Assembly (NCBI GenBank): GCA_048617235.1
Contig: JBMCHT010000002.1
Span: 1-61,898 of the forward strand
Reading direction: 5' to 3'
DNA length: 61,898 nt
DNA from: Patescibacteria group bacterium
GTDB lineage: Bacteria > Patescibacteriota > Minisyncoccia > Phycocordibacterales > XYD1-FULL-46-19
How positions within the stretch are numbered: the first letter of the stretch is position 1; the number at the start of each line of letters is the position of its first letter. The notes beneath the pieces were generated by a model, which did not search any database, was not told where the DNA came from, and saw only the letters and a list, made by a program, of their open reading frames with translations. The translations under genes were made by a program, and so were the position numbers. Positions 86 to 44,161 of this stretch are shown here, piece after piece.

Positions 86-93
86 AGAGAGGA

Positions 94-1014: not shown

Positions 1015-1154
1015 GGTCTTTATTATCTTAACAAAAAATTATGAATATGAATATTGATAATTTTTTATTTGAAAAATTTGAAAATAAAATAATCTTTGAG
1101 ATTATAATTTTTGAGTTTCATTTTCTAAATAATCCTACAATACTATAAATAAAA

Positions 1155-1195
1155 CACAAATAAAAACGGCCGGAGCTTTTGCAAACTCCGACCGC
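1155..1195 (-). terminator. intrinsic terminator downstream of the GC-rich 350-aa gene
   Basis: Minus-strand stem GGTCGGAG/CTCCGGCC with a 10-nt loop, followed by TTTTTATTTG. Confidence 0.6.
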
Positions 1196-1211
1196 TGTAA
1201 CGACAAAAAAA

Positions 1212-2515: not shown

Positions 2516-2609
2516 TTCCTTCCTCCTTCTTTTTTTGTCAAAAAAAAATAAAACAGAGGACAACCCCCTGCTCTCCATCGGGAATAATAGCATATTATAC
2601 CCTAGTTTG

Positions 2610-3809: not shown

Positions 3810-3875
3810 TTTTTAAATTAAGAAACAGAAACATCCTAACATATATCAGGATAATCACATCTTTAAAAAAGACTT

Positions 3876-7072: not shown

Positions 7073-7076
7073 AATT

Positions 7077-9447: not shown

Positions 9448-9470
9448 AAAATAATATTATTTCAAAATAT

Positions 9471-10064
9471 CTAAACCTGTAAATGAGGTCGACTCCTTAG
9501 AAAAGACCTTAAGCTTATCATAGCTATTATCCAACTCAAAAAAACGGCCATACCGTAAATAGTCATAAGTGAACCATAAGTATATAAATCTACAGATAAT
9601 ATTTCCAATATCAACATAAACAACCAAGAAACTATAAAAATCACCTGCCCGGTATATAAACCAATACTTTTTTTTCTAAAAATTGGTTGATCCGGTAAAT
9701 ACAAATCCAAATTGTTTTTTAATAAAGGTAAATGTTTTAGTTGAAAAAACAAACCATTAATCAAAATAATAACAATAATGGTAATCACCGCCAAAAAATT
9801 ATCAGACTCCACATAATATTGCCAATAAGTCCCGGTTAGCAAAGAAGAGCCCAGCACAACCAACAATAAAGCCAACCAGATAATATAACTACCCAATTTA
9901 ATAAAACGCAATTCCGATCGAGTGATTATTTTATCACTAATAGAAGTTAAAAACATAACACCGGTTAAAACAGTCGCTCCTAATCCTAAGCTCAAACCTA
10001 ACATATATAACAAATTAAAAAATACTGACCAATGAATAAAATCCAACCCTGTTTCCATAAACAT
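9471..10064 (-). CDS. integral membrane protein (same family as 53045..53491)
   Basis: Five to six TM segments. Shares the GLGA...IW...INGLF...LLK pattern with the 148-aa ORF at 53 kb. Confidence 0.6.
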   Translation of the reverse strand: MFMETGLDFIHWSVFFNLLYMLGLSLGLGATVLTGVMFLTSISDKIITRSELRFIKLGSYIIWLALLLVVLGSSLLTGTYWQYYVESDNFLAVITIIVIILINGLFFQLKHLPLLKNNLDLYLPDQPIFRKKSIGLYTGQVIFIVSWLFMLILEILSVDLYTYGSLMTIYGMAVFLSWIIAMISLRSFLRSRPHLQV

Positions 10065-10092
10065 GATAAATGATTAAATTAACTATTAATTA

Positions 10093-10266
10093 TTACCCGA
10101 TTTTTCTTCCTTGTAACCACTCTTGTAAACTTTTAGCAAACTCAGGATCAACCTTAGCTTTATCTTTAATTTCCTGCCAACCCCGAGCACACTCGATACA
10201 AAGACCGGAATCACAGCAAATCTGGCATTGGTCTTGTTCTACTAACTTAAATTCTTTCTTTTCCAT
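10093..10266 (-). CDS. small Cys-rich protein (57 aa), below the ORF-track cutoff
   Basis: Hand translation gives MEKKEFKLVEQDQCQICCDSGLCIECARGWQEIKDKAKVDPEFAKSLQEWLQGRKIG*. It contains CxxCC and CxxC motifs and is co-oriented with its neighbours. Confidence 0.45.
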   Translation of the reverse strand: MEKKEFKLVEQDQCQICCDSGLCIECARGWQEIKDKAKVDPEFAKSLQEWLQGRKIG

Positions 10267-10343
10267 AATGTTTTATTTATTATTTTTAATTAAAGAATTA
10301 AATCTAATTTAATTATAACAAAGACTTTCTTAAATAAAAACTA

Positions 10344-10373
10344 TTGATTTTTTCCACTTGTCTTTGTTAAAAT
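10344..10373 (+). promoter_or_regulatory. candidate sigma70-type promoter of clpB (TTGATT-N18-TAAAAT)
   Basis: -35 at 10344..10349 and -10 at 10368..10373. Only 6 nt separate the -10 from the ATG at 10380. Confidence 0.35.
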
Positions 10374-10379
10374 GCAATT

Positions 10380-14575: not shown

Positions 14576-15334
14576 TTATTTTTTAAAAAAGCTATCAATC
14601 ACTTTTTTCAATCGTCGGCTAAGACCCCCTTGCTCTAAATTAGATAAAGATAGATGACCTCCTTTGGACCAAATAACCATTTTGGCTTTTATAGCTTCAG
14701 TTAATTTTTCAGCCGGTTTAATGGATACCACCTGATCATCTTTAGTGTGAATAATCATTATCTTCTCTCCCGGCAAATTTAAGGCAGTAGCCGGATTAAA
14801 AAAACGACCTGATCGAATCTTAGACCAGCCGCCGGGAGTAAAACGATAAGCCGCCCCAAAACCTTGTTTAATAAAATCCATTAATTTTAAAACCGGCTCA
14901 GCTTTACTTTCCACACGCCAATCTACTACCGGAGTTAAAGCTACCACTTTTTTAACATATTTATTTGAAGCAGCCAGCAAAGCTGCCGCTCCTCCAAAAC
15001 TGGATCCAATAATATAAACTTCCGGATTGTCTATTTTATATTTCTCTCCCGACCAAGAATTTTTAAAACCTTTTTTCAAACTATCAATCACATCTATTAA
15101 ATCTTGACTTGGTTCTGTTTTAAACATTTTTCCCTCGGACTCCCAACTCCCCCGATAACGAGGCAAAAAAACCCAATAACCCTTTTTAGACCAATGTTCT
15201 AATAAATTACGGCGGCGGCCGGGATAACTGGGCATACCACCGGCAAAAATTACAACCTTATTAGAAGTTTTCTGTTTAATTGGTGGCAAAAATTCAGCTA
15301 CAATATCTTTTTTGAATCTGGTTCGTAAAATCAT
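14576..15334 (-). CDS. alpha/beta hydrolase (S9/dienelactone-hydrolase-like)
   Basis: GSSFGG nucleophile elbow and a C-terminal GGH motif. Confidence 0.7.
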   Translation of the reverse strand: MILRTRFKKDIVAEFLPPIKQKTSNKVVIFAGGMPSYPGRRRNLLEHWSKKGYWVFLPRYRGSWESEGKMFKTEPSQDLIDVIDSLKKGFKNSWSGEKYKIDNPEVYIIGSSFGGAAALLAASNKYVKKVVALTPVVDWRVESKAEPVLKLMDFIKQGFGAAYRFTPGGWSKIRSGRFFNPATALNLPGEKIMIIHTKDDQVVSIKPAEKLTEAIKAKMVIWSKGGHLSLSNLEQGGLSRRLKKVIDSFFKK

Positions 15335-16599
15335 TTTATGTTTTCAATCACATAATTTATTACTTCTTTAACATCCATTAATTTATTTTCCGATTCAGTT
15401 CTTTTTTTAAATTCCACTTTATTCTCCGCCAAAGTCTTAGCACTAACAACCACTCTAAAAGGAATTCCTAAAAGATCGGCATCGCTTAATTTATCTCCGG
15501 CTCCGGCTTCTTGCCTGTCATCATAAATTACTTCCAAACCGGCTTTGGTTATTTCCATATAAACTTCTTCGGCAAATTCTTTAACCGGGGCTTGATCTAA
15601 ATTAAGTCCGACTAAATAAACCTGGAATGGTGCTACCGATACCGGCCAAACCAAACCTTGATCATCACTTAAAACTTCAGCCAAAGTACCCAATAAACGC
15701 CCCAAACCAATACCATAACTACCCATAATCGGCGGTTTACTTTGTCCGGCTTCATCGGTTAATAATAACCCCATAGCTTCAGCATATTTAGTACCCAGAG
15801 GAAAAATATTACCCACCTCAACCGCTTTTTCTTTTACCAAATCCGCCTTTTGTAAACCATATTGTTTTAAAGTGTCTTCATTATAAACCTCTTCATTAAC
15901 AGCCAATTTTTTATTTTTATCTATATAAATAATATCCTCTCCGGCCGAAGAGATTGTTTGAAATTCATCAGTAAAACCGGAAGTAAAAGAACCGCCGGCG
16001 GCCACTGTTCTATAAGTGATATCCCTTATACCCACTTTTTGATAAATTCTATTATAAGCCTCGGCACATTTTTCATAAAACTCTTTAAAATCGTCTTCTG
16101 TTTTATTAAAAGAATAAAGATCTTTCATTAAAAACTCTCTAGTTCTCATAATACCACTTTTGGCTCTCAATTCATTCCTGAATTTATTTTGAAATTGATA
16201 TACATAAACCGGTAAATCTTTATATGAAAACAGCTGGTGAGTTAAAAGATTAGTTATTGGCTCTTCATGAGTATTGGCTATTCCCAAAGTCTGACCATTA
16301 GCCAATTTAGTTTTAAACCAGATATCTAACACCTCATCATCCCACCGACCGGATTTTTCCCACAAAGAAGCATCCTGGAGTGTGGTCATCATTAATTCCT
16401 GACCTCCAATAGTATTCATTTCTTGTCTGATAATATTTTCAATTTTCTTTAACACTCGTAAACCAAGAGGTAAATAAGCGTAAACTCCGGCCATTTCTTT
16501 ATGAATAAAACCGGCTCTGATTAACAATTTGGCGTTCCGAGCCGTTTCGTTGGCCGGATCTTCTGTTCGAGTTTTGGCTAAGAAGAAAGATCTTTTCAT
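15331..16599 (-). CDS. proS: proline--tRNA ligase, compact form without a large insertion/editing domain
   Basis: The N-terminus is typical of ProRS. Class II motifs and a C-terminal anticodon-binding domain are present. 422 aa. Confidence 0.85.
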   Translation of the reverse strand: MKRSFFLAKTRTEDPANETARNAKLLIRAGFIHKEMAGVYAYLPLGLRVLKKIENIIRQEMNTIGGQELMMTTLQDASLWEKSGRWDDEVLDIWFKTKLANGQTLGIANTHEEPITNLLTHQLFSYKDLPVYVYQFQNKFRNELRAKSGIMRTREFLMKDLYSFNKTEDDFKEFYEKCAEAYNRIYQKVGIRDITYRTVAAGGSFTSGFTDEFQTISSAGEDIIYIDKNKKLAVNEEVYNEDTLKQYGLQKADLVKEKAVEVGNIFPLGTKYAEAMGLLLTDEAGQSKPPIMGSYGIGLGRLLGTLAEVLSDDQGLVWPVSVAPFQVYLVGLNLDQAPVKEFAEEVYMEITKAGLEVIYDDRQEAGAGDKLSDADLLGIPFRVVVSAKTLAENKVEFKKRTESENKLMDVKEVINYVIENIK

Positions 16600-29564: not shown

Positions 29565-30815
29565 TTAAATTTTACCTCGTAATAAACCGGCTTCTACCAA
29601 CCGTTTAACACCCAAAACAAAAGCCGCCTCCCGGTAGGAAATACCGAATTCAATTTTACTTTTTTCAACTTCAATATAAGCCATTTTCATCATTGCTTCT
29701 AATTTATTTTTTACTTCTTCGGCCGACCAATAATCACCGGTTTTATTTTGAATCCATTCAAAATAACTGACAGCTACTCCGCCGGCATTAACTAAAATAT
29801 CCGGCAAAACATCTACTGCCTTTTTATTTAAAATATCACCAGCTTCCGGAGTTAGTGGCCCATTGGCTAATTCTAAAATAATTCTAGCTTTTATATCTAT
29901 AGCATTAGCTTTCGTTATCTGGCCACCCAAAGCGGCCGGAATTAAAATATCCGCATCTTGATTCAACAAAGCCTCAGTTGTCTCCAAAAACTCCCAAGAT
30001 TCACCCATCTTTTGATTATAAATATCTTTAAAAGACAAACCGGCTCGTTTAGCTTGTTTTAATTTATAAGGATCCAAACCGGTGGCTGACCACAAACCAC
30101 CACTGGAATCAGACAAAGCGGTAATTATATAACCGCGGTCAAATAACAAACAAGCAACATTGGCTCCGGCATTACCAAAACCGGAAATAGATACTCTTAA
30201 TTCCGCCGGATTTAATTTTTTATTTTGAACATACTCTTCCAAAACCATAATTCCCCCGGCAGCCGTTGCTTGATCTCGTCCTAAACTGCCCCCCAAAGCA
30301 ATAGGTTTACCGGTAACTACCCCGGGCTCACTTCGCCCCCTAATAATTTCAAATTCATCTAAAATAATCGCCATAATTTCCGAGTTGGTATAAACATCCG
30401 GGGCCGGAATATCTTTATCCACACCTATATCTTCAGCTAAAGCCCGAACCATAGCTCTGGTTACTTCAATTAAATCTTCCGCTGAACAATCTTTAGGATT
30501 AATTAAAACTCCGCCTTTGGCACCACCAAAAGGAATATTAATAACAGCTGTTTTTAAGGTCATAGCCGCCGCCAAAGTTTTAACTTCCGCTTCATCCGCT
30601 TCCGGATGAAACCTAATCCCTCCTTTATAAGGCCCTCGCCAGTTGGAATATTGAACTCGATAAACCTCAAACTCTTTACCAAGAGCCTGGATCTTTTTAT
30701 TTATAATCCTATCCGGGGTTTTTAATTTTTGAACCACTAAAGGAGATAAATTTAAAAAAGAAGAAGCTTTATCTACTTTTTGACAAAAAGAATCAAACGG
30801 ATTAATTGAAGACAT
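29565..30815 (-). CDS. Glu/Leu/Phe/Val dehydrogenase family (glutamate dehydrogenase-like)
   Basis: PFGGAKGG catalytic-Lys region and GFGNAG dinucleotide fold. Confidence 0.85.
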   Translation of the reverse strand: MSSINPFDSFCQKVDKASSFLNLSPLVVQKLKTPDRIINKKIQALGKEFEVYRVQYSNWRGPYKGGIRFHPEADEAEVKTLAAAMTLKTAVINIPFGGAKGGVLINPKDCSAEDLIEVTRAMVRALAEDIGVDKDIPAPDVYTNSEIMAIILDEFEIIRGRSEPGVVTGKPIALGGSLGRDQATAAGGIMVLEEYVQNKKLNPAELRVSISGFGNAGANVACLLFDRGYIITALSDSSGGLWSATGLDPYKLKQAKRAGLSFKDIYNQKMGESWEFLETTEALLNQDADILIPAALGGQITKANAIDIKARIILELANGPLTPEAGDILNKKAVDVLPDILVNAGGVAVSYFEWIQNKTGDYWSAEEVKNKLEAMMKMAYIEVEKSKIEFGISYREAAFVLGVKRLVEAGLLRGKI

Positions 30816-32248: not shown

Positions 32249-32485
32249 TTATTTTTCTTCTAACAATTGATTTAATTTTTTCTGATCAAAACCAATAACC
32301 ACTTTTTCTCCTTTTATTATTACCGGTACCCCCAATTGACCGGTTTTTTCTTTAATTTCATTAACCGCTTCTTTATTTTCAGTAACATCCACCTCTTCAT
32401 ATTCCACACCTTTGTTATCTAAAAAGTTTTTAACCATGGGACAAAAAACACAAGTAGGACTGGTATATAAAATTATTTTTTCCAT
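32249..32485 (-). CDS. glutaredoxin/NrdH-like small redox protein
   Basis: 78 aa with a CVFC active site and a GVPV motif. Confidence 0.75.
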   Translation of the reverse strand: MEKIILYTSPTCVFCPMVKNFLDNKGVEYEEVDVTENKEAVNEIKEKTGQLGVPVIIKGEKVVIGFDQKKLNQLLEEK

Positions 32486-32489
32486 ATTT

Positions 32490-33635
32490 TTAAAACATTA
32501 AATAATAATAAGCTAAATAAAATAAGATTATGGCTCCAATAAAAGTTATCCAAGTTATTAACCGAGAGCCGGCAAACCAAATCTTTTTAGTTAAAACCGC
32601 TCCGGTAAAAATAATCAACTCTATCAACATATAAAAGAAAAGATAAATTAAAATATAAAAAATATAAGCTATTAACGACACCTCTTGTTCCACCAAAATC
32701 CCGGTAAAAGCAATCGGCACTCCAATTGAACAAGGTAATTCCACCACGGTAACCACAAAAGCAAAGAAAACAACACTACCGGCTAAAACCAAAATACCTC
32801 GACCGGATTCAAAAGAATTCTTTAATTTAAGAGTGGCTTTTTTAATCAAAGAATTATCCGAGGCCTGACAAGTGGGACCATATCTGAAAAAACGCCAAAA
32901 TTCTTTCAAGAAGTATAAACCACCACCCAAAGCGGCCAAGCCCACTATTATCCTCAATATCTCCAAATGACCCAACAATAATTCAAATAATTTACCCCAA
33001 GCAAAAACTAATAAGCCATAAACCAAGACCGTAGTAAAAATAAAAAGACCACCAAAAAAGAAGATTTTCTTTTTAGAATCAAAAATAACCACTATCGATA
33101 AAATTAAAACCAAAGCTCCTATAGAACAGACATTAAAACCATCAATCGAACCCAGAATAAAAGATAAAATGGGTAAAGACCAGCCTGCTAAATTAATTTC
33201 TTTATTAATAAAAGGAATAGTAATAATTAAATCCGAATCTGTCTCTACTGCTTGACCTTCTAAGGCTTGTATTATTTTTTCTTCTTCTTGAGGACCAAAC
33301 TCTAAAAACTGAAAAAAATTATCTCCAATAAAAACAGTTGGGGCCATTAAACGAAAGTCTTCTATCTGATATTCTTCCACCTTTTGATATAACCTTTCGG
33401 TATCACTAATCGGATAAATTACCAAATTAACTTGAGGATAATCTTCAGTTATAGTCTCTTGGATAAAATCTTTAGTTGCCTGACAAGTGGGACAAAGCCG
33501 ATCATCAAAAAAATAGATAGTGCTTTCCGCTTTGGTATCGATTGTTTCAGTAGTATCTGCTAAAACCAAAACAGCCGGCCAAACCAGGATTAAAACAGTT
33601 AAAGAAAAAAGTATTTGTAGACTTAATTTTTTCAT
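32490..33635 (-). CDS. secreted thioredoxin-like domain fused to a CcdA/DsbD-like thiol-disulfide transporter membrane domain
   Basis: Signal peptide and CPTC motif, then TM segments carrying FNVCSIGAL and LPCSIG cysteines. Confidence 0.6.
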   Translation of the reverse strand: MKKLSLQILFSLTVLILVWPAVLVLADTTETIDTKAESTIYFFDDRLCPTCQATKDFIQETITEDYPQVNLVIYPISDTERLYQKVEEYQIEDFRLMAPTVFIGDNFFQFLEFGPQEEEKIIQALEGQAVETDSDLIITIPFINKEINLAGWSLPILSFILGSIDGFNVCSIGALVLILSIVVIFDSKKKIFFFGGLFIFTTVLVYGLLVFAWGKLFELLLGHLEILRIIVGLAALGGGLYFLKEFWRFFRYGPTCQASDNSLIKKATLKLKNSFESGRGILVLAGSVVFFAFVVTVVELPCSIGVPIAFTGILVEQEVSLIAYIFYILIYLFFYMLIELIIFTGAVLTKKIWFAGSRLITWITFIGAIILFYLAYYYLMF

Positions 33636-33641
33636 AGCAAA

Positions 33642-34094
33642 CTACAATTGACAACCAACAACTTCAGCTAAAACCTCCGGCGAAGCCCAGCCTTCAAAAA
33701 TCTCGCCGTTAATCTGAACTGCCGGTACATAATCAACTAACATTTCTTGATTACATCTTTCCGGCTCATCCCTACATTCAACATAAATCGGTTTCATATT
33801 TTCATAACCGCCATATTCTTCAACCAAACGAGCACAAGCCGGACAAGTCCGACTGCCATAAATAACTACTCCGGCCTCAGCCAAACATTCAGCTAAATTC
33901 AATTTTGAATTAACAATTTCATTATTTTCATTATTATCTTCTGAATTATTCTGGGGATCATCTTCTACAATTTCAGAATTATTATTTTCCGAATCAATTT
34001 CAATTAAATTATCTACCGATTGCCCCGTCCACCAATAACCGGCACCGGCACTTAAAACAGCTAATATAATAACCAATAATGATAGTTTAGACAT
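33642..34094 (-). CDS. membrane-anchored thioredoxin-like protein (resembles the VKOR-associated Trx domain)
   Basis: YGSRTCPACARL...YVEC...C...VPAVQINGE..G pattern. Confidence 0.6.
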   Translation of the reverse strand: MSKLSLLVIILAVLSAGAGYWWTGQSVDNLIEIDSENNNSEIVEDDPQNNSEDNNENNEIVNSKLNLAECLAEAGVVIYGSRTCPACARLVEEYGGYENMKPIYVECRDEPERCNQEMLVDYVPAVQINGEIFEGWASPEVLAEVVGCQL

Positions 34095-34151
34095 AAAAAT
34101 ACAAAATTACCTTTCTACTATAGCACTATAAAAACTTATTTCAAATTTTAA

Positions 34152-34841
34152 TTATCTTACTTCCAAAAAAACCCGATTTCCCTGATCAATTATATCGGCT
34201 TTAATTTGAGGAAAAGCTTTACCGGTTTGAATATCTTCACACAATTTAGCTATCAAACTATCAAAAGGATAAGCATTGGCATCATAAACTAAATCCCCAA
34301 CCGGCAATTTAGTTAACATCTCCGGCATTTCTTCAATAATATAAGTACCGAATCTTCTTTTATCTTCAACCGTAAAAGTTCTTTCTTCTTTAGATACAAA
34401 ATCTTCTACTATATTTAAAATCACTTCTTGAAACTCCTGATCATTCCCATAAAGATTATATAAATAATCCATCTTGGCTAAATAATCTTCATTAATAAAA
34501 TCTGCCCAGGTAGCCAAATAAATCTTTTTAGCCACCTCTGGCTCTATTTTTTCACTCAAAATCTGTTTTACATCTTCCATCATTTTCTTCCCCATTTTCT
34601 TGGCTTTCTTTTCAGCTTTAACTATAGAAACCCCATCCCTAACTTCTATATTAATAGCATGAATCAAATCGGCTACATAAACCACCACAAAATCTTTAGT
34701 ATTATCCAACGACCACAAAGTTAAATCAAAAATATTTTCAGGAGTAAACCATTTATTACCTAAACTAATACCTATGGCTATGTTATATTCTTTTTGTTTT
34801 AAAGCTTTAGAGGTTCCTCCTCTAATCTGATGTAATGTCAT
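34152..34841 (-). CDS. tRNA-dependent cyclodipeptide synthase (CDPS) family protein
   Basis: IGIS26LGN29KWF, Y167-IIE-E171-M-P173 and Y191-P192. The spacings S to Y (141) and Y to Y (24) match remembered AlbC catalytic residues S37/N40/Y178/E182/Y202. 229 aa. Confidence 0.78.
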   Translation of the reverse strand: MTLHQIRGGTSKALKQKEYNIAIGISLGNKWFTPENIFDLTLWSLDNTKDFVVVYVADLIHAINIEVRDGVSIVKAEKKAKKMGKKMMEDVKQILSEKIEPEVAKKIYLATWADFINEDYLAKMDYLYNLYGNDQEFQEVILNIVEDFVSKEERTFTVEDKRRFGTYIIEEMPEMLTKLPVGDLVYDANAYPFDSLIAKLCEDIQTGKAFPQIKADIIDQGNRVFLEVR

Positions 34842-34867
34842 AACTTGTATTCTAATACGGACAGCTT

Positions 34868-35152
34868 TTATTGTGAAGCCTTAATAATTTTAATAGCCCT
34901 GCCTTCAATCAAAGCCTCGGCTATTTTTTTATAAGCCAAAGACAAAATCCTTTGAAAAGTACTTTGAGAAGTATTCATTTTTAAAGCTGCTTCTTCTTGG
35001 CTTAGATTTTTAATATTTTTTAACCGAAGAGCTTCCGCTTCTTCAATACTTAATTCTACCACTTGCAACTGACGCAAGGGTATACCTTGGGGTTTGAAAT
35101 AAACTACCTGAGGATTAAATTTAACTCTGCGATAAAGTCTGGGCCTGGGCAT
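34868..35152 (-). CDS. DUF134 (UPF0251) predicted DNA-binding protein
   Basis: MPRPRLYRRV...FKPQGIP...EEAEALRL...SQEEAALKM..SQSTFQRIL is a textbook DUF134 pattern. Confidence 0.8.
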   Translation of the reverse strand: MPRPRLYRRVKFNPQVVYFKPQGIPLRQLQVVELSIEEAEALRLKNIKNLSQEEAALKMNTSQSTFQRILSLAYKKIAEALIEGRAIKIIKASQ

Positions 35153-35171
35153 AAAATTATTTTTAAAACTA

Positions 35172-35211
35172 ATAATTAAAACCCTCCCGGCTTTCTAGTA
35201 AAAACCGGGAG
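35172..35211 (-). terminator. possible intrinsic terminator after the DUF5320 gene
   Basis: Minus-strand stem CTCCCGG/CCGGGAG with a 14-nt loop, followed by GGTTTTAATT (short U tract). Confidence 0.4.
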
Positions 35212-35224
35212 AATTTTACCACTT

Positions 35225-35437
35225 CTAGCTTTCCTGTTCCAAAGTCTTAATTTCTTCTCTAACAGCCATCAATTCATTTTCCAACATCTTTTCTTCCTCT
35301 TTTAAAGAATTAATTTCATTTTTTGGAGAAAAGAAGCGGCGACCGAAACCACGGCCCCGGCCGGCCCCACAAAAACCAAAACCACGTCCGGTTCTCGGGC
35401 CTTGGCCCACAGGGCCGGTACCATCAAAATAAGGCAT
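35225..35437 (-). CDS. DUF5320 small protein (Gly/Arg-rich N-terminus, coiled-coil C-terminus)
   Basis: MPYFDGTGPVGQGPRTGRGFGFCGAGRGRG followed by a heptad-like tail. Confidence 0.75.
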   Translation of the reverse strand: MPYFDGTGPVGQGPRTGRGFGFCGAGRGRGFGRRFFSPKNEINSLKEEEKMLENELMAVREEIKTLEQES

Positions 35438-35520
35438 GATAATTTAAAATTATAAATATTATTAAATCGACCTTTATTTTGAGTATATACCCATAACTAT
35501 TATTTGTCAAGAAAATACTT

Positions 35521-36315
35521 TTAACTTCCAAAAGTCATAAAATTAGTGCTTTCATATCTCTTAACCCCCCAATAAAACAATTTGATTCCTAAAATAAACC
35601 ACAAAAAAGATAAAACTAAAACTAAGGAAAAAACAGACAAAGAAATATTTTTAACAATTTCAACCGGCAAAGTTCCTATAAGTAAAGAAGGAATTAAAAA
35701 AGTAAATATAAATCTAGTTAAACCTTGAAAAGCTCCTCCATGAAATAAAGTCGGGGTCATAAAAAGTTCAAATAAACTACCGGTAATAGCATTAGCATCA
35801 GTAAATAGAAAACTAGCTGAATAAATAGTTATAGTTGCAGATAAAAAAACCAAAGCAGAAATAAAAATCAATAAAATTATTAAAAATATTTGCACTAAAT
35901 TAGCTTGAATAAAAACCATATAAATAATTAAACAACTCATACCAAAAACCATATCTCCTACCGCTGAAGCATTAAAAAAAGAAGTAGCTATTCTAATTAT
36001 TAAATTTTTAGGAGACAACATAAAACGATCAAAACCACCATTGGCTACATAATCCGCTATTTTTCTCAAACCAGCTCCAACAGAAAAAACCAATCCGTAA
36101 GAAAAAGCTCCGAAACCTAAAAGCCCAACTATATCCATAGCTTCCCAACCATTAATAATTCCTACAGATTTAACAAAAAAAACCCAAAGAATAATAAAAG
36201 CAATATTATTAATTGACATTCCGATAATATTCACCAAAAAACTGGTGCGCAGTTCAGCACTACCTTTTATATTTTTTTTAATAGCCCTAAAAGCAAAACG
36301 CAATTCTTGTAACAT
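35521..36315 (-). CDS. ABC-2 type transporter permease (DUF990/COG3694-like)
   Basis: 264 aa with about 6 TM segments. Operonic with an ATPase and a second permease. Confidence 0.65.
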   Translation of the reverse strand: MLQELRFAFRAIKKNIKGSAELRTSFLVNIIGMSINNIAFIILWVFFVKSVGIINGWEAMDIVGLLGFGAFSYGLVFSVGAGLRKIADYVANGGFDRFMLSPKNLIIRIATSFFNASAVGDMVFGMSCLIIYMVFIQANLVQIFLIILLIFISALVFLSATITIYSASFLFTDANAITGSLFELFMTPTLFHGGAFQGLTRFIFTFLIPSLLIGTLPVEIVKNISLSVFSLVLVLSFLWFILGIKLFYWGVKRYESTNFMTFGS

Positions 36316-36324
36316 AAAATTATA

Positions 36325-37125
36325 TTATCCACCATTAACGGATACTTTTTCTTTAGCTTTAATAAAAACCAAAAAAGTTATTAAGGCTAAAATAATAATC
36401 CAAAATAATTGTAAACCAACTTTAAACAACCATCCAGTTGACCAATCTTCATAAACCGTATGAGTAATAAATTGCGTCGCTCCAAAAGGGCTATAAACCG
36501 CCACTTTGTACATAAAATCAGGGAATAAACCAATCGGCAAATATGAACCACCTAAAATCATAACAAACTTATCCACTATCCAATGAACTGGATTAACATC
36601 TTCAATCCAAAATGCCAATAAACCAACTAAACTATACAAAAAAAGAGATAAAACCGTTCCTAATACTACTACAGTTAAAAAAGAAGGTATAAATGAACCA
36701 ATAAAAACGGTTTCCGGTAGACCAACAATTAAAGCTAAAAGAGTTGTTCCTATTATAGAAATAAAAATTAAAGAATATAAACCAAGACCCACTTGCCAAC
36801 ACATTCTGTAGTATAAATACGAAACCGGTTTACTAAATAAAACTTCCACATTTCCGGATTGGACATCTTGCATTATTAAACGAGCGATATCCCTTAAACG
36901 AAATACCGAAAAAGTAAAATAAAAAAACATACTCCAGGCCACCACTTCAAAAGTGGTATTATTAATAACACCATCATTCATTTGATAAACATACCAATAC
37001 AAAACAAGTAAAACTCCACAACGAGCCATTATACTGGCTGTATCCATCACTAATCTACCGGGATAAAAAATTCGATCCCTAATAAGAGTAATTAATATTT
37101 TACTACCTAGTCGAATTGCTTTCAT
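36325..37125 (-). CDS. ABC-2 type transporter permease (DUF990/COG4587-like)
   Basis: About 6 TM segments. Start moved to MKAIRLG, which limits the overlap with the ATPase gene to 23 nt. Confidence 0.65.
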
Positions 37126-38098
37126 AAATATTTCTAATAACTGTTTCCAAATCGGTATCATAAATATCTATATCATCCACCCTAAATAAATCTAACAATT
37201 GGCGCAAAGCGGTTTGAACTCCTATTTTATTAATATCAACTACTACTGTAATTTTGTTTTTATTTTTTAAAGCATAATGTATTCCAAGCGGTAAATCGGG
37301 AAATTGATCAAAACTTATTTCCGGAGTAATATCTATATTTTTTTCTAAAACAAAAGTTCGAGCTAATTCTTTAGTGGGTAGATCTTTAATAATAGAACCG
37401 TAATTAATGACAATTGTACGATCACATAAAAATTCTATATCACCTACATCATGAGAAGTTAAAAAAATACTGGTTCCTTCTTCTTTATTAATCTTTAAAA
37501 GTAAATCTCTTAAGGATTTTTTAGCTACCACATCTAAACCAATAGTTGGTTCATCTAAAAATATAATTTTCGGTTTATGTATTAAAGAAGTCGCCACTTC
37601 GGCTCTCATTCTTTGGCCTAAAGATAATTTTCGTACCGGTTGATCAATAAATTTTTTTAAATCAAAAAGATCAACCAAATCATCTATTCTGTTTTTAATC
37701 TGCCTATCACTTAAATCATACATTACTCCAAAAAACTCCAAAGAATCTGTTAAGGGTAAGTTGGGTAATAATTGAGATCTTTGACCAAAAACAGTTCCTA
37801 TTTTATAAGCTAATTCTTTACGATTCTTAGAAGGATCTAACCCTAAAACATTAATTTTACCGGTTGTAGGAAAAAGAATTCCGGTTAACATTTTTATAGT
37901 AGTAGATTTCCCGGCTCCATTGGGTCCAATAAAAGCAACCCTTTCTCCACTCTTAACTCTGAAAGAGATATCATTAACTGCTTGAATTTCTCTTTTTTCC
38001 GGAAAAAAGAGATTTTTTACCCAACCTGAAGAATCTCTTTTTACCGGAAATAAAAATTTTTTAGAAAGATTAGATATTATAATAGAATCAGTTTCCAT
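37103..38098 (-). CDS. ABC transporter ATP-binding protein (COG4586-like) with a C-terminal extension
   Basis: Walker [10 protein letters not shown], signature LSLGQRMR and Walker B IFLDEPT. Confidence 0.9.
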
Positions 38099-38195
38099 AA
38101 AAGTATTTTAATCTTAACAGAAAAAACATCTTTTTGTATAGAATTTCATTTTAGAAAATAAAACACTCAATATTCATCTAAGAAATAATTTCTAT

Positions 38196-38224
38196 TTGAC
38201 AAAGATTATATGTCAAAGTATAAT
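38196..38224 (+). promoter_or_regulatory. consensus sigma70 promoter TTGACA-N17-TATAAT driving the GC-rich two-gene unit
   Basis: -35 at 38196..38201 and -10 at 38219..38224, both exact hexamers. A GGTAGC/GCTACC hairpin lies in the leader at about 38254..38272. Confidence 0.6.
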
Positions 38225-38292
38225 AAAAATCGGTGTTTGAACATTGTCATAAAGGTAGCCCAAAAAGCTACCAACAACGAGAGGAGAGAGAA

Positions 38293-38766
38293 ATGGAGAT
38301 AACAGCAGTAGTAGTATCAACAAAAGGGCAAAATACTGCCCTGGTCAAGAAGTACGGAACAGAGGTGATGACGGTGGTAGCGGAACTCGAAGGGTTTGAG
38401 GACATCAAGGCTATGCCCTCTCGGGTTCTGGCCTTGAGAGACCGATTCGGTCTCTCCCCGACTCAAATCCACGAACTCTATCTCCTGCGGGAGGGGTTTG
38501 TGGTGACCAGCCGCAAGTCAACCACCTTTCAGGGGATAACTCTGACCGGCCTGGCTCTACTGGAGAGTGAGATCCTGGAATTCCAGGAGATGTCTCAAGA
38601 AGAAAAGGAGGAGGTGGTTCGGGAAATCCTGAGCCAAGCTCCGCCTCGAGGCTTCACTTGGCTGTGTCGTCGGGTGGTGGCTCGCCACCAGGCGACCAAC
38701 GCCCTCTATCTGGATGAGATTCTGCATCCGGAGGACTGGGTCAGGAAGGGCCAAGATGAATACTAA
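38293..38766 (+). CDS. hypothetical protein (157 aa), GC-rich; first gene of the J-domain operon
   Basis: ATG preceded by GAGGAGAGAGAA. An 11-nt overlap with the next ORF suggests translational coupling. Confidence 0.6.
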   Translation: MEITAVVVSTKGQNTALVKKYGTEVMTVVAELEGFEDIKAMPSRVLALRDRFGLSPTQIHELYLLREGFVVTSRKSTTFQGITLTGLALLESEILEFQEMSQEEKEEVVREILSQAPPRGFTWLCRRVVARHQATNALYLDEILHPEDWVRKGQDEY

Positions 38767-39661
38767 CCCCCTCAAAGTCCTGGGTCTAGATCCAGGACTA
38801 ATTCGAAGTCTTCGAGGGGAGGATTTGATTGCAGTGGCTCGATCCCAATATCGGGTTCTGCAAAAAATTCACCACCCGGACCGCGGTGGCTCAGCTAAAG
38901 TTTCAGCGAAACTAAACTGGGCCATGGAGGAGCTGGAAGACCCCAAGCGGGCCGCCAGCTGGCGGAAAAAACTTCTGAACTCCTCCAAGAAAAATAAACT
39001 CCTGGAAGAGTTAGAAGCTCTCCGTCAAGAGCAGGAACAGTGGTTGCAAAACCATTATCTGCCTCAACTGAAGGCTCTGTGTCTGAATTCTCAGCAAGTC
39101 TTCATAGACATCTTGGGAATTCGTTCGGAGCCTTTATGGATCCGCCGGTACAAACCCGGACCAACCCTGGTTTGGGCCAGGATGCCGGCCAAAACCAAAA
39201 AAGAGAAGGCGGACAGAGAGAGAGTCCGCCAAGTTGACCCGGTTCGGAATCTGGTTCGCCTCTTCGTAGAGACGGATCAGTTGCAAACTGAAGACTATAA
39301 GGGAGTCCGGAGCGAAACGAAGCGGTTACCGCTCGGGGTAATCACTTCTGAGGCAGTCCAGCGTCAAACTGGGTTCAGGTTAAACACCGTTCCCAGGATG
39401 ATGCTGGAGATCTTGGAAAACCACCAGGACCCCAATCAGTTTCGACTTCCGGGGGAAAAGGTGTCGGATGCAGAGTTCTTAGGTGGAATTCCGTCTGAGG
39501 TCTTTATCCCAGCCCTACCCCTTGTCCAACCAATCCGCAATAAAGGTTTTCTGATATCCGCCGAGGTCTCAGAAAACCAACTCCGCTTCCATCTTGAAGG
39601 CGACATCGTGGCGCCGAAGATGGTGGCTGATCTCTTCAATCGTTACAACAGCGGCACCTGA
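38756..39661 (+). CDS. J-domain (DnaJ-like, HPD motif) protein with an unrecognised C-terminal region of about 230 aa
   Basis: LKVLGLDPG...ARSQYRVLQKIHHPDRGGS...KLNWAMEELEDP. Confidence 0.7.
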   Translation: MNTNPLKVLGLDPGLIRSLRGEDLIAVARSQYRVLQKIHHPDRGGSAKVSAKLNWAMEELEDPKRAASWRKKLLNSSKKNKLLEELEALRQEQEQWLQNHYLPQLKALCLNSQQVFIDILGIRSEPLWIRRYKPGPTLVWARMPAKTKKEKADRERVRQVDPVRNLVRLFVETDQLQTEDYKGVRSETKRLPLGVITSEAVQRQTGFRLNTVPRMMLEILENHQDPNQFRLPGEKVSDAEFLGGIPSEVFIPALPLVQPIRNKGFLISAEVSENQLRFHLEGDIVAPKMVADLFNRYNSGT

Positions 39662-39678: not shown

Positions 39679-40491
39679 TTTTCTATCCCGAAAAAAAGTA
39701 TGGAGAGAATCAAAATCATCATGAAGACGGTCGGCTTTTTCTCCAACAAAATCTATCACTTTTTCAATTATTTCCAATAAATCATCCAAATATTCCCGAC
39801 TATAAATTTCTTTAAATTCAAAAATATACAATTTATCTTTAACAAACTCCAAACCAAAAACCGGACTTTGATAATTTAAATAATGTAAAAAATCTAAAGT
39901 GAAAATCTGCAAAGCTTCTGTTTGATAACCCCTGGTCACATACAAACGAAAATCTTTTAAACTATGAGAAGGTTTAATTTCCACATCACTTTTATATCTG
40001 AAAATATTTTCAGAAAACCTAATTGCCGGTCTAACAAATAAAATGTGTGGAAAAGAAGTTTTAGTAAACAAAATCTCGGCCATGGTTATTCTTTTAATTG
40101 TTCTTTGTTTATCTCCGGTAAAATAAAAATGTTCAAAAATATTAACCTTAAATCCTCTATAGTAAAACTCAATGACATCTTTTTTATTTAAACCATTATT
40201 AGCAGATAAGCTCAAAAATCTGGCTCGAGGAGTTTTCTTAAAAATTTTTTCAAAAAATTGAAAATTATGGCTATCGGCAAAATCTTTCATCCTGGCTCTA
40301 ATTTGTGGATCAATATAATCCTTTTCCTTTCCCCAAAAAAGCTCATAAAACACAGGCAGAAAAGCTAAAGAAAAAATTAAAAAGAAAGAATTTAAAGGCC
40401 ACTGCTTCCAAAAAATTAAAAAAAATCCAATTGCAAACAATGAATAAATTATATATATAATCCCGAATCCTATTTTTAAAAAAATAATCAT
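39676..40491 (-). CDS. membrane protein (two N-terminal TM segments plus a soluble C-terminal domain)
   Basis: 271-aa ORF. No confident family call. Confidence 0.5.
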   Translation of the reverse strand: MIIFLKIGFGIIYIIYSLFAIGFFLIFWKQWPLNSFFLIFSLAFLPVFYELFWGKEKDYIDPQIRARMKDFADSHNFQFFEKIFKKTPRARFLSLSANNGLNKKDVIEFYYRGFKVNIFEHFYFTGDKQRTIKRITMAEILFTKTSFPHILFVRPAIRFSENIFRYKSDVEIKPSHSLKDFRLYVTRGYQTEALQIFTLDFLHYLNYQSPVFGLEFVKDKLYIFEFKEIYSREYLDDLLEIIEKVIDFVGEKADRLHDDFDSLHTFFRDRK

Positions 40492-41276
40492 TTCTTTAAT
40501 TTAAATATAACAAACTCTGGTATTTTATTTAATCTGTAATAAGTTTGAGATTTAATTGTCTTGAGTTTTTCCAACGGCCGCGGTTCAATCATTTTTTCTA
40601 TTAAAAAACCCGCTTCAGTCGCAGCTTCAGCAATATCTCCCAAAGGCATAGACCATATATTTACCGTATTTTCTCCCATGCTATCTATAATTTTCTTCTT
40701 GGCTAAATAATCTCCCGTAACCTCCACTTTGCCGGTAGCTTTTTCTTTTACAACTTCTAATTTTTTAATAAAATATTCTTTATCATCTTTTTGAGCCATG
40801 GCCAAACGCACGGGATGTCCGCAAGAAAATAAAAAAGAAGACCCCGGTTTTAATAGACGATAAACTTCCTTAAAGACCTTATTCCAATCTTCTAAGTAAT
40901 GAATTGCCAAACTGGAATATATAAAATCGAAACTGGAATCAGGGAAATTTATCTTTTCCATATTCATAACAAAAAATTCACATTCAGAATATGATTTTTT
41001 AGCAATATTAATCAGCTCTTCACTTAAATCAATACCTACAGATTTATTAGCTCCTTGTTTTTTAAGATAAAAACTATCCTCTCCACTACCACAACCAAGA
41101 CTTAAAACTTTTTTATTTTCAAGCTCCGGCAATAAAGCATACATAGCCGGCTTTTCGTAATAAGCATGATAAATAGAATCTTCAGAATTTCGAACATGAG
41201 ACGCATACTCCTTTGCTTTGTCTTTATAATATTGAATGGTTTTATCGTCTGTAGACATATAACAATTTTTAATCAT
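40488..41276 (-). CDS. class I SAM-dependent methyltransferase
   Basis: Motif I VLSLGCGSGED in a Methyltransf_11-like layout. Confidence 0.8.
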   Translation of the reverse strand: MIKNCYMSTDDKTIQYYKDKAKEYASHVRNSEDSIYHAYYEKPAMYALLPELENKKVLSLGCGSGEDSFYLKKQGANKSVGIDLSEELINIAKKSYSECEFFVMNMEKINFPDSSFDFIYSSLAIHYLEDWNKVFKEVYRLLKPGSSFLFSCGHPVRLAMAQKDDKEYFIKKLEVVKEKATGKVEVTGDYLAKKKIIDSMGENTVNIWSMPLGDIAEAATEAGFLIEKMIEPRPLEKLKTIKSQTYYRLNKIPEFVIFKLKK

Positions 41277-41576
41277 TTATTCACCCATAATCTCCGATTC
41301 AATTCTATGGGCATCTTCAATTATTCGTTTTATCATATCTTCTACTAAATCAGGATTAAGGGTTAATTTTTCTGCTAATTGACGACGATCTTTAATTACC
41401 TCTTTTTCTCTTTCAGGTTGGTACCTAGCCACATTATTTTTCTTTTTATATTCGGCCACCATAGGAATAAGAGCCATCCGACGAGCTAAAACTTCAATTA
41501 ATTCCGTATCTAAAAGATCTAGCTGTTTTCTTAAATCATTAATATCTTCATTATTAAATTGTGATATTTGATTCAT
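41277..41576 (-). CDS. chorismate mutase (AroQ class)
   Basis: 99 aa with LRKQLDLLDTELIEVLARRM......ER pattern. Confidence 0.75.
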   Translation of the reverse strand: MNQISQFNNEDINDLRKQLDLLDTELIEVLARRMALIPMVAEYKKKNNVARYQPEREKEVIKDRRQLAEKLTLNPDLVEDMIKRIIEDAHRIESEIMGE

Positions 41577-41597
41577 ATAAAAATTTAACTTTAATTA

Positions 41598-43307
41598 TTA
41601 AACCTGACCCAAAACTCTTTTTATATAACAATATTTATCTATTTCCGCCAAAGCGGATTGTATATTTTTAGATTTTAAATTACCCTCTAATTCCAAGAAA
41701 AAATAATAATCACAATCTTCTAAATCTGAAGACTTGGAATGTAATTTAGTCAAATTAATAGATCTGGTAGCAAAAGAATTCAAAATATCATTTAAAATAC
41801 CCGGCCTATTATGTACAAGCAAAATAAGAGCGGTTTTGGCAGTTTTAAAAGATTTTAATAATTCAAGATTGTCGGCTTTGGTAATAATATAGAACTCGGT
41901 TGAATTATTTTTTTTATCCTCAATATTTTTAACTAAAATATTTAATTTATATTTTCGAGCTGCCTCCAAACTACCTATAAAAGCTGTTTCTTTATCTTTG
42001 GTTTCTAAAATAGCCTTAGCCGAACTGGCTACCGGTTCCAAGATAACATCCGGTAAATTAATTCTAAGCCATTCTTTAGCTTGAGCTAAAGGTTGAGGAT
42101 GGGATTTAATAACTTTTATGGCAGATAAATCTTTAGCTCGACTAAATAAGTGTAAATGTATAGGCATACGGTAAGAACCGGCTACTACTAATGGAAATTT
42201 AGTGAAACAATCCAAAGACTCTTGGACAATACCTTGAGTACTGTTTTCTATAGGAACAACTGCGGTTCCTAGATCACTGTTTAAAGTATATTCAAAAACT
42301 TCACGAATGGTGGTACAAAATTCAATATTATTATCACGATCAAATATATTTTTAGCCGCCAGATGAGAAAAGGTTCCTTCCGGCCCTAAAACAAAAATTG
42401 ATTGTTTTTTTAAATCTTGGTTTTTATACTTTTTAGCTTGAGAAACAACGAAAGATTGACGATCAGCAATATTAAAGATTTCCATCGAAGCTGTTTGAGC
42501 CAGAGGTATAAAAGATTCCAAAGCTTTAGCCGATTGTTCATAAATTTTTATATAAGATTTTAAATTCTTTTCTTTGATAGTAGAACTTAATTTTTTATAT
42601 TCTTTATCTAAATCATTTAAAGTTTTTCTAAAAGCGGGATTTTGAATCGCAATCTCGGCATAAAGATTGGCTTTACCCCCAAGCACCCGAGCACTTAAAA
42701 TACTTTGCAACCTAAACACCGGAGAAGAATATAAATTAAGTTGCTGAGTATTATGTTTACTTAAAACTACTCCAAATAAAATATTAATAAAATGAGTCAA
42801 AGCTTGAACAATAGCCATATTTTTATCATGTTCAGAAGCTGGTGATTCAATTAGACGAGCTCCTCTTTTTTTAAATAAATCTTTCAAAAAAAGTACCCAG
42901 TGATTATCTCGACCCGGACAAAAAACAATTGACTGATTTTTCAATGAAGTAACTAAAGGACCAAACATTGGATGAATACCAACAACTCCGCAACCAGATT
43001 TAGTTTTCATCATTTCTTTTAAGGGAAATTCTTTAATCGAGGTAAAATCACATAAAAGCGCCTCCGGTCTGACTTGCTCTCTTATTTTTTTAATAACCGA
43101 AGCCGTAACTGAAATAGGCACAGAGACTATAACAATATCTGCTTTTTTAACTTCAATTAAAGTTTCTTTTTCATCAGCTCGACCCAAAGCTTTAACCGTC
43201 AAACCTTCTTTTTTAAAAAAATTTACAAACCAAGAACCAAATTTACCATTACCACCTAAAATAACAATATAAGGATTATTCTTATCTTTTAAATTTTTGT
43301 TAACCAT
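41598..43307 (-). CDS. fused prephenate dehydrogenase (TyrA-like) / prephenate dehydratase (PheA-like) with a C-terminal ACT domain
   Basis: N-terminal ILGGNGKFG Rossmann fold and HPMFGP. The central part has VLGPEGTFSH and the TRF-like region of PDT. The C-terminal ACT-like segment reads LLVHNRPGILNDIL. Confidence 0.7.
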   Translation of the reverse strand: MVNKNLKDKNNPYIVILGGNGKFGSWFVNFFKKEGLTVKALGRADEKETLIEVKKADIVIVSVPISVTASVIKKIREQVRPEALLCDFTSIKEFPLKEMMKTKSGCGVVGIHPMFGPLVTSLKNQSIVFCPGRDNHWVLFLKDLFKKRGARLIESPASEHDKNMAIVQALTHFINILFGVVLSKHNTQQLNLYSSPVFRLQSILSARVLGGKANLYAEIAIQNPAFRKTLNDLDKEYKKLSSTIKEKNLKSYIKIYEQSAKALESFIPLAQTASMEIFNIADRQSFVVSQAKKYKNQDLKKQSIFVLGPEGTFSHLAAKNIFDRDNNIEFCTTIREVFEYTLNSDLGTAVVPIENSTQGIVQESLDCFTKFPLVVAGSYRMPIHLHLFSRAKDLSAIKVIKSHPQPLAQAKEWLRINLPDVILEPVASSAKAILETKDKETAFIGSLEAARKYKLNILVKNIEDKKNNSTEFYIITKADNLELLKSFKTAKTALILLVHNRPGILNDILNSFATRSINLTKLHSKSSDLEDCDYYFFLELEGNLKSKNIQSALAEIDKYCYIKRVLGQV

Positions 43308-44161
43308 TTTTTATATTTTTTGTCTTGACCTCTAACCACTAAATCATATTTTTCTTTAATTTGTTCGGAAACTGTAAATTGTTTAAAAATATGCTTATCA
43401 ATTGATTTAATCATTGTTACCTCGGCGGCGGTACCGGTAAAAAAAGCTTCATCAAAATTTTTCAAATCTGAAGGAGTAATACTTTTTTCTATTACTTTAT
43501 ATCCCATTTCTTTTACTAAAATCATAACAGTATCACGAGTCAAACCCGGTAAAATAGAACCGCTCTTAGGGGTAATAATATTATTATTTTTAACAAAAAA
43601 AATATTTTCCCCGGCTCCTTCCGCTACTTTTTTATTAACATCAAGCAACAAGGCTTCATCAAAACCGACCCGACGAGCCTGACTAGTAGCTAAAATAGAA
43701 TTAACATAATGACCGGAAATTTTAGCTCGGACATCGGTAGAATCATGATGAATTCTTATAAAAGAAGAAATCTTTACTCGAACCTTATCATTTAAATATT
43801 TACCCCAAGGCCAAGCCGCTATTACCAAGTGAACATCAGCCCCTTGAGGATCAAGACCCATTTTATTGCCAAAATAAATCAACGGCCTAATATAACCCTC
43901 CTGAAAACGATTAACCCGGATTGTTTCTAAAACCGCTTCTTCCGTTTTTTTAATAGAAAAAGGCAGTTTCATTCCCATTACCTCAGCAGAATAAAATAAT
44001 CGTTTAAGATGATCCCTTAGACGAAAGACGGCCGAACCGTTATCGGTTTTATAAAATCTAATACCTTCAAAAACAGCACTGCCATAATGTAAACTATGGG
44101 TTAAAAGAGGTATTTTAGCTTTTTGTTCATTAACAATTTTTCCATCGAGCCAATATTTCAT
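43289..44161 (-). CDS. class IV aminotransferase (branched-chain/D-amino-acid aminotransferase family)
   Basis: FEGIR..., ...EGAGENIF and TGTAAEV motifs. Confidence 0.8.
   Translation of the reverse strand: MKYWLDGKIVNEQKAKIPLLTHSLHYGSAVFEGIRFYKTDNGSAVFRLRDHLKRLFYSAEVMGMKLPFSIKKTEEAVLETIRVNRFQEGYIRPLIYFGNKMGLDPQGADVHLVIAAWPWGKYLNDKVRVKISSFIRIHHDSTDVRAKISGHYVNSILATSQARRVGFDEALLLDVNKKVAEGAGENIFFVKNNNIITPKSGSILPGLTRDTVMILVKEMGYKVIEKSITPSDLKNFDEAFFTGTAAEVTMIKSIDKHIFKQFTVSEQIKEKYDLVVRGQDKKYKKWLTKI

Follow-up and report, generated by a model that had tools for sequence, protein, structure and literature searches.

A predicted tRNA-dependent cyclodipeptide synthase of the ParcuCDPS type in a Patescibacteria genome

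The subject of this analysis is a gene on the minus strand of a 61,898-nucleotide stretch of DNA from a Patescibacteria group bacterium (positions 1-61,898 of contig JBMCHT010000002.1, assembly GCA_048617235.1), which we refer to at its full length as the window. The open reading frame (ORF) at 34152-34841 runs from ATG to TAA and encodes a 229-residue product that, judging from its sequence and modeled fold, is almost certainly a tRNA-dependent cyclodipeptide synthase (CDPS). With codon coordinates checked, its translation reads I23-G24-I25-S26-L27-G28-N29-K30-W31-F32 near the N-terminus, followed by Y167-I-I-E-E171-M-P173 and Y191-P192. The gene and the codons on which the argument turns are listed below, with conservation counts from a 68-sequence alignment that includes the window protein and in which identity to that protein is 32-53%.

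34152-34841, minus strand: predicted cyclodipeptide synthase gene, XYP subfamily, ParcuCDPS clade (ORF; PF16715 and TIGR04539; match to 7QB8; AlphaFold2 and Foldseek)
34764-34766, minus strand: Ser26 codon, predicted catalytic nucleophile that would carry the aminoacyl-enzyme intermediate, equivalent to AlbC S37 (68/68; ParcuCDPS S26A inactive)
34677-34679, minus strand: Y55 codon, retained residue of pocket P1 (residue comparison with ParcuCDPS)
34668-34670, minus strand: Asp58 codon, proposed partner in a Ser/Asp dyad specific to the ParcuCDPS type (68/68; ParcuCDPS mutants)
34329-34343, minus strand: Y167-x-x-x-E171 catalytic motif, AlbC Y178 and E182 (Y167 in 67/68, E171 in 68/68)
34320-34322, minus strand: E174 codon, retained residue of pocket P1 (residue comparison with ParcuCDPS)
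34275-34277, minus strand: Asn189 codon, a pocket-1 position occupied by Tyr189 in ParcuCDPS (N in 11/68, Y in 44/68)
34266-34271, minus strand: Y191-P192, the XYP signature, AlbC positions 202 and 203 (68/68)

An earlier reading of the bare sequence (the original prediction) had called this ORF a CDPS homologue. Every motif it named is found in the 229-residue translation at the position it gave, and its spacings of 141 residues from Ser to Tyr and 24 from Tyr to Tyr are correct. The AlbC numbering that it gave for the two Tyr residues, Y178 and Y202, agrees with PMC7613923, as does P203. The checks it proposed on profile, fold and catalytic columns were run. The match to the Pfam CDPS family, PF16715, is significant at 50 bits against a gathering cut-off of 27 (E=4e-13), and the NCBIfam model TIGR04539 (“tRNA-dependent cyclodipeptide synthase”) matches with 70.1 bits against a cut-off of 45 (E=1.9e-19), while no aminoacyl-tRNA synthetase (aaRS) profile matched the protein in the Pfam and NCBIfam scans. 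A sequence search of the PDB aligned residues 1-229 with residues 1-229 of seven entries at E=5e-56, all of which are one enzyme, ParcuCDPS, and the next matches, at E of about 1e-5, were BtCDPS, AlbC and Rv2275. The start codon is supported as well, since the ParcuCDPS alignment begins at M1 of both proteins.

We built an AlphaFold2 model of the window protein from the 68-sequence alignment, with a mean pLDDT of 96.9 and a pTM of 0.91. The model has the Rossmann-type fold of CDPSs, and the best 50 matches from a Foldseek comparison with the PDB were all CDPSs. TM-scores were 0.86-0.89 to 7QB8, the wild-type ParcuCDPS structure, and 0.63-0.74 to AlbC, YvmC, Rv2275, BtCDPS and the XYP structures 5MLP, 5OCD and 5MLQ. 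S26, Y167, E171 and Y191 fall on the same-numbered catalytic residues of the crystallized ParcuCDPS. With profile scores above curated cut-offs and with fold and catalytic columns in agreement, the CDPS identity claimed in the original prediction stands, and so does its placement near the XYP subfamily, as Y191-P192 is present and the nearest characterized relative is classed XYP. The subfamily is defined by X40, Y202 and P203 in AlbC numbering, and Y167 has been equated with AlbC Y178 (PMC7613923). Asn29 of the window protein, at AlbC position 40, is compatible with this definition, as X may be any residue.

ParcuCDPS is the enzyme designated CDPS 90, from Parcubacteria bacterium RAAC4_OD1_1 (PMC5816076; PMC7613923), and its records are as follows.

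GenBank ETB63777.1: ParcuCDPS protein
PDB 7QB8: wild-type ParcuCDPS
PDB 7QAQ, 7QAT, 7QAU, 7QAW, 7QAX, 7QAY: ParcuCDPS mutants

Expressed in E. coli, CDPS 90 produced cyclo(His-Pro) (cHP, 44%) and cyclo(His-Glu) (cHE, 56%) and was assigned to the XYP subfamily (Gondry et al. 2018, PMC5816076), and its structure was later solved and the enzyme mutated and re-engineered (Sutherland et al. 2022, PMC7613923). Four conserved active-site residues were described, S26, Y167, E171 and Y191, together with D58, which hydrogen-bonds S26 and is essential, D58A and D58N each retaining less than 1% of wild-type activity (PMC7613923). The inactive mutants are S26A, D58A/N, Y167A and E171A/Q, and G84 puts a kink in helix alpha3 (PMC7613923). 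We recovered the sequence independently: the ParcuCDPS sequence from the PDB alignment is identical to an ORF at the RAAC4_OD1_1 genome locus (L028 among the homologue loci collected here).

The window protein and ParcuCDPS are both 229 residues long and align without a gap over 1-229 at 41% identity (divergence 59%), and their hosts both belong to the Patescibacteria. They are identical, in register, at S26, N29, Y55, D58, G84, Y167, E171, P173, E174, Y191 and P192, so that the Ser26/Asp58 dyad, Gly84 and the co-linear 229-residue layout of the ParcuCDPS type are all present in the window protein. They differ at position 56 (Val in the window protein, Ile in ParcuCDPS), at position 189, which is taken up below, and in the putative tRNA-binding helix, which is richer in Lys in the window protein (residues 73-98 hold 9 Lys/Arg, against 5 in ParcuCDPS). 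The genomic neighborhoods of the two genes are also unlike.

The window protein belongs to a sizable clade. A search of 5.8 billion proteins returned 73 relatives, nearly all of 229-230 residues, with 42-53% identity and bearing PF16715; those that are named come from Parcubacteria or Nomurabacteria metagenome-assembled genomes (MAGs), and automatic annotation at NCBI and JGI had already named some of them “tRNA-dependent cyclodipeptide synthase”. When 1.84 billion cluster representatives were scanned exhaustively with HMMER, 234 clusters matched at E<=0.001, 131 of them at E<=1e-10. In terms of species genomes, the clade turned up in about 28 that are patescibacterial and 8 that are genuinely archaeal, and a neighbor-joining tree without support values places the window protein inside the group from the candidate phyla radiation (CPR). 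In the 68-sequence alignment S26, G28, N29, D58, F137, E171, Y191 and P192 are invariant, Y167 is present in all but one sequence, P173 and E174 are each found in at least 90%, and G84 occurs in 59. The catalytic residues are thus held constant at 32-53% identity, and for that reason the conservation across the clade indicates selection on catalysis.

Two copies in the collected loci look like decaying genes. At L034 (about 10001-10689) the ORF is interrupted, leaving 175 residues without the half that carries E171 and Y191, and at L046 (10001-10195), in a Zambryskibacteria MAG, only residues 1-65 remain, in mid-contig. Several further loci (L027, L036, L011, L015, L017 and others) have record titles naming Pseudomonadales, Bdellovibrionales or “Saccharibacteria”, and their CDPSs group with those of Paceibacteria and Parcubacteria; the taxon labels of such third-party MAGs may be unreliable.

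Taking these results together, we put a probability of roughly 85% on the window gene encoding a functional, stand-alone XYP tRNA-dependent CDPS of the ParcuCDPS clade of Patescibacteria. From homology we infer that the enzyme is very probably catalytically active, and the same holds for its reaction order, the surface that binds tRNA and its substrates. A first aminoacyl-tRNA would bind, probably via the Lys-rich helix at residues 73-98 as homology suggests, and its aminoacyl group would enter the deep pocket P1. The aminoacyl group would then be transferred to Ser26, positioned and polarized by Asp58, to form an acyl-enzyme. A second aminoacyl-tRNA would place its residue in the wider pocket P2, and the resulting dipeptidyl-enzyme would cyclize with the help of Y167, E171 and Y191 to a 2,5-diketopiperazine, which would be released untailored.

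The residues around P1 offer some guidance on which amino acid enters first. In ParcuCDPS this pocket holds histidine, recognized by Y55, E174 and Y189, with Y55 and E174 contributing more to its selection than Y189 (PMC7613923). Since the window protein keeps both of the stronger determinants, we regard His-tRNA(His) as its most likely first substrate, at about even odds. The products are likely to resemble cyclo(His-Pro) or cyclo(His-Glu). The third member of the triad is missing, as position 189 is Asn in the window protein, and because of this we file it as a probable histidine user and not as a cHP/cHE synthase.

Several points weigh against the assignment as we have framed it. One member of the Y55/E174/Y189 triad is replaced: Asn stands where ParcuCDPS has the Tyr189 that takes part in histidine recognition. 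Our substrate prediction is based on the P1 positions, and computational prediction of CDPS specificity is described as hard in the ParcuCDPS paper itself (PMC7613923). The model and 7QB8 superpose with a root-mean-square deviation of 3.1 Å although the two sequences align ungapped, which suggests that model and crystal differ locally, and this difference may involve the unusual alpha3/beta3 region of ParcuCDPS. Finally, neither a Shine-Dalgarno sequence nor a validated promoter could be assigned to the gene, and we claim no promoter, as promoter-like matches numbered 26 in the sequence and 25 in its shuffled counterpart.

The missing tyrosine bears most directly on the product. It is possible, though on balance we lean away from it, that the protein is an active CDPS of this clade with another product spectrum, in which the Y189N change remodels pocket 1 so that the enzyme takes a first substrate other than histidine or pairs histidine with other partners. 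Position 189 matters in ParcuCDPS, where Y189F and Y189L make less cHP and double mutants that include Y189L switch to Leu or Phe (PMC7613923). Across the clade, the P1 positions 55 and 189 both vary, which suggests that there is no single shared specificity: at position 55 (Y/C/V/H/F/N/L) 55 of the 68 sequences have Y and 7 have C, and at position 189 (Y/N/F/W/C/L/D/H) Y predominates with 44, ahead of N with 11, F with 3 and still rarer residues. The recurrence of Asn189 in 11 of 68 sequences, counting the window protein, gives it the look of a selected state and not of a defect, and it is frequent among the nearest relatives of the window protein. Against a change of spectrum, Y55 and E174 are retained, the side chain of Asn could still hydrogen-bond the imidazole, and the N189 variants are scattered over the neighbor-joining tree and do not form a single specificity group.

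A CDPS fold could also outlive its function, leaving either a decaying relic or a protein that transfers aminoacyl groups from tRNA to some other acceptor. The two visibly decaying members of the clade (L034 and L046) are in keeping with such a fate, and the absence of conserved genomic partners means that the context backs no particular pathway. The window ORF, however, is full length and intact, its catalytic residues and G28, N29 and F137 are all present, its AlphaFold2 model is very confident, and ParcuCDPS, which has the same catalytic set at 41% identity, has been shown to make cyclodipeptides both in vivo and in vitro. We therefore consider it very unlikely that the protein no longer makes cyclodipeptides, and return to the reading of a functional, stand-alone CDPS.

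To ask of the surroundings what the gene might work with, we turn to its neighbors in the window and then to the clade. The features immediately upstream are as follows.

34868-35152, minus strand: DUF134 gene with a sigma-70 region-4-like helix-turn-helix, 94 residues, upstream neighbor of the CDPS gene (Pfam DUF134, E=1.5e-22; 26 nt separate its stop from the CDPS start)
35177-35218, minus strand: terminator-like hairpin, 19-bp stem with a T-rich tail, between the DUF5320 and DUF134 genes (consensus scan, pattern match only)

The DUF134 and CDPS genes may be co-transcribed, and the hairpin is likely to mark the 5′ boundary of such a DUF134-CDPS transcription unit. Terminator-like sites are common in this part of the window, with 12 in 32300-38400 against 3.4 in shuffled sequence. 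Beyond DUF134 the upstream order is the hairpin and then the DUF5320 gene, with an ABC-2 transporter further upstream. Downstream of the CDPS gene lie genes for a thioredoxin-like protein of 150 residues and a membrane protein of 381 residues. The pairing of DUF134 with the CDPS is not conserved in other genomes.

The gene sits comfortably in its host. GC content is 35.5% over the window and about 31% around the CDPS gene, so that the “streamlined, AT-rich genome” of the original prediction is a fair description of this patescibacterial host with its native-looking gene. The gene itself has a GC of 0.314, a GC at third codon positions (GC3) of 0.248 and a codon-usage distance of 0.085, values that are indistinguishable from those of its neighbors, and on this native composition and codon usage the idea of recent horizontal transfer was rejected. 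The BipA/TypA protein of the window shares 75-85% identity with proteins that, where they carry a name, are mostly from Kaiserbacteria, Parcubacteria and Paceibacterota. A look-up of the exact CDPS protein in the contig index gave no record, and the contig of its closest relative by BipA (85% identity) is not syntenic with the window. That the CDPS gene came in by recent horizontal acquisition, or through a binning or assembly chimera, is highly improbable: neighborhoods across the clade are unconserved, recombinases or integrases adjoin the gene at the homologue loci L004 and L003/L022, and at a distance of about 3.4 kb the window holds a GC-rich cassette that is clearly foreign, but GC, GC3 and codon usage are typical of the flanking housekeeping genes, the gene stands on the same strand in an unbroken minus-strand run at 26 nt and 57 nt from its neighbors, and its close homologues are all from Patescibacteria, the same group that BipA indicates for the window. 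The CDPS gene thus looks native.

For the wider context we used 38 species-representative loci and nine found by exact protein look-up, 43 of them non-redundant and 41 with a CDPS ORF, called ORFs at these loci and clustered the resulting 774 proteins. Within four genes on either side of the CDPS, no family is shared by more than 3 of the 41 loci, and no neighbor from the window recurs at all. On this basis we rejected a conserved partner or tailoring gene cluster, and no conserved cyclodipeptide oxidase, P450, 2OG oxygenase, methyltransferase or prenyltransferase adjoins the CDPS at these loci. The nearest methyltransferase gene in the window, at 40488-41276, is about 5.6 kb from the CDPS gene and is not a recurrent neighbor. 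Because no neighbor family recurs, we describe the CDPS of this clade as a stand-alone enzyme, without a conserved tailoring enzyme, regulator or exporter. The window also gave no tRNA gene and no match to an Rfam family, so there is no cognate tRNA gene near the CDPS.

Two possible associations were considered and set aside. The first is with aaRS genes. A ProRS gene is at +1 of the CDPS in L008 (6739-7995) and another at -3 in L039 (6823-8277), and L035 has a HisRS-like gene at -1 (8799-9941) and a GluRS gene at -5 (6130-7350). These neighbors are the synthetases that charge the three substrates of ParcuCDPS. We did not adopt the link, as 4 cases were observed against about 1.35 expected, which is marginal (post hoc Poisson P of about 0.05); moreover, the archaeal copies differ in P1, and the ProRS gene of the window (15331-16599) is 18 kb from the CDPS gene. 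The second is with metal or redox functions. At L007 (6768-10771) the CDPS gene is followed by genes for a CsoR-type repressor, a copper P-type ATPase, an HMA-DsbD_2 membrane protein and a cupredoxin, and the window has at 32490-34094 the genes for the thioredoxin-like 150-residue protein and for the 381-residue membrane protein, the latter with a weak glutaredoxin-like N-terminus. This link was dropped, as the window proteins have no significant DsbD match and the families of L007 and of the window do not co-cluster.

Other genes of the window encode ClpB, ProRS, a non-discriminating AspRS, glutamate dehydrogenase, a chorismate mutase/prephenate dehydrogenase-dehydratase set and glycosyl hydrolases, almost all on the minus strand. 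In 41277-44161 and 29565-30815 we found genes for chorismate mutase, a fused prephenate dehydrogenase/prephenate dehydratase/ACT protein of 569 residues, a class IV aminotransferase and glutamate dehydrogenase. Amino-acid metabolism of this extent is more than is usual for Patescibacteria. Nearly all gene-like ORFs of at least 90 residues run on the minus strand and the GC skew stays negative over almost all of 1-61898, and owing to this strand bias and skew the window probably lies within one replichore. Positions 1-4000 have a GC of 0.44-0.47, noticeably above the rest.

The GC-rich cassette mentioned above is a sharply bounded pair of genes at 38233-39661 on the plus strand, about 3.4 kb from the CDPS start. 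Its GC is 50-58% (block of about 38300-39650) within DNA of about 30% GC, and its strand is opposite to that of nearly all other genes. A perfect TTGACA-17-TATAAT precedes it at 38196-38224. The two ORFs, of 177 and 315 residues, match no family; the longer one has an “HHPD” J-domain-like motif, with a weak DnaJ match (E=0.09), and one homologue elsewhere among the 5.8 billion proteins, at 61% identity. The pair recurs on the AT-rich contig of L048 (1729-3138), again with elevated GC and opposite in direction to both flanking genes, and the smaller ORFs of the two copies are 37% identical (E=2e-29). The block looks like a small mobile cassette.

ParcuCDPS-type genes were also found in archaea, at eight loci in MAGs of the DPANN group (Nanoarchaeota, Woesearchaeota, Pacearchaeota), with 29-35% identity.

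L035, L037, L039, L041, L042, L043, L044, L045: DPANN loci, with the match at about 10001-10690 in most

The archaeal context is real: genes for a TATA-box-binding protein and an ATP-dependent DNA ligase flank the CDPS in L041 and L045, and the surroundings in L039 include genes for GatE and an archaeal-type ProRS. These copies retain the catalytic set and have changed P1 residues, and the midpoint-rooted neighbor-joining tree, which has no support values, splits them from the bacterial copies. Gondry et al. had already mentioned one archaeal metagenomic XYP sequence in 2018 (PMC5816076), and our literature search found no paper on CDPS biology in CPR or DPANN organisms. We speculate, while thinking it unlikely, that the ParcuCDPS-type lineage is nearly confined to CPR and DPANN episymbionts, as stand-alone genes whose untailored polar cyclodipeptides would serve the relationship between symbiont and host (for example in signaling or metal handling), and that the Y55/E174/N189 subgroup would make a cyclodipeptide new for CDPSs.

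Among more distant relatives, the other XYP enzymes with structures (Rgry-CDPS 5MLP, Fdum-CDPS 5OCD, Nbra-CDPS 5MLQ and 9I5M) share with the window protein the Y-P signature, the fold (TM-scores of 0.64-0.69) and the aminoacyl-tRNA-dependent cyclodipeptide chemistry predicted for it, but only 14-17% identity in structural alignments. These other XYP enzymes use small or hydrophobic substrates (Gly, Ala, Leu) and are without the Ser/Asp58 dyad and the alpha3/beta3 rearrangement (PMC7613923). AlbC of Streptomyces noursei (3OQV, 4Q24), the NYH reference, has the same fold (TM 0.63-0.74), and N29 of the window protein occupies the position of AlbC N40. The catalytic residues S37/Y178/E182/Y202 of AlbC correspond to S26/Y167/E171/Y191 at a constant offset of -11. 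Here we take S37 to be the catalytic Ser of AlbC, and E182 is presumably the counterpart of E171, which fits this offset. Pro192 replaces the His203 of NYH enzymes, and overall identity is about 20%. AlbC, which makes cyclo(Phe-Leu), is partnered by a cyclic dipeptide oxidase, while no tailoring enzyme adjoins the window gene. CDPSs, for their part, do not activate amino acids with ATP. The catalytic domains of class Ic aaRSs (TyrRS, TrpRS) have no sequence-level family relationship to the window protein; a Rossmann-type fold is common to both, and CDPSs are structurally related to these enzymes (title of entry 2X9Q).

The window gene therefore adds a member to a known kind, the ParcuCDPS type, whose founder is already characterized and crystallized. 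The original prediction was aware of no characterized CDPS from reduced, symbiont-like genomes, and in this it was mistaken, as the products of ParcuCDPS were reported in 2018 (PMC5816076) and its crystal structure in 2022 (PMC7613923). The solved XYP structures matched in the PDB moreover include enzymes from Rickettsiella and Fluoribacter, and a CDPS-tRNA complex from Candidatus Glomeribacter is among the work cited in PMC7613923. Measured against this background, one more intact and apparently native ParcuCDPS-type enzyme in a Parcubacteria genome is of modest significance. Cyclo(His-Pro) and other histidine-containing cyclodipeptides attract pharmacological interest, and by 2022 no more than two CDPSs that use histidine had been validated (PMC7613923). 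A natural Y189N variant of the histidine pocket would be a cheap and informative enzyme for working out the rules of specificity. For the organisms themselves, the gene supports the view that some of those with minimal biosynthesis still spend charged tRNAs on diketopiperazine.

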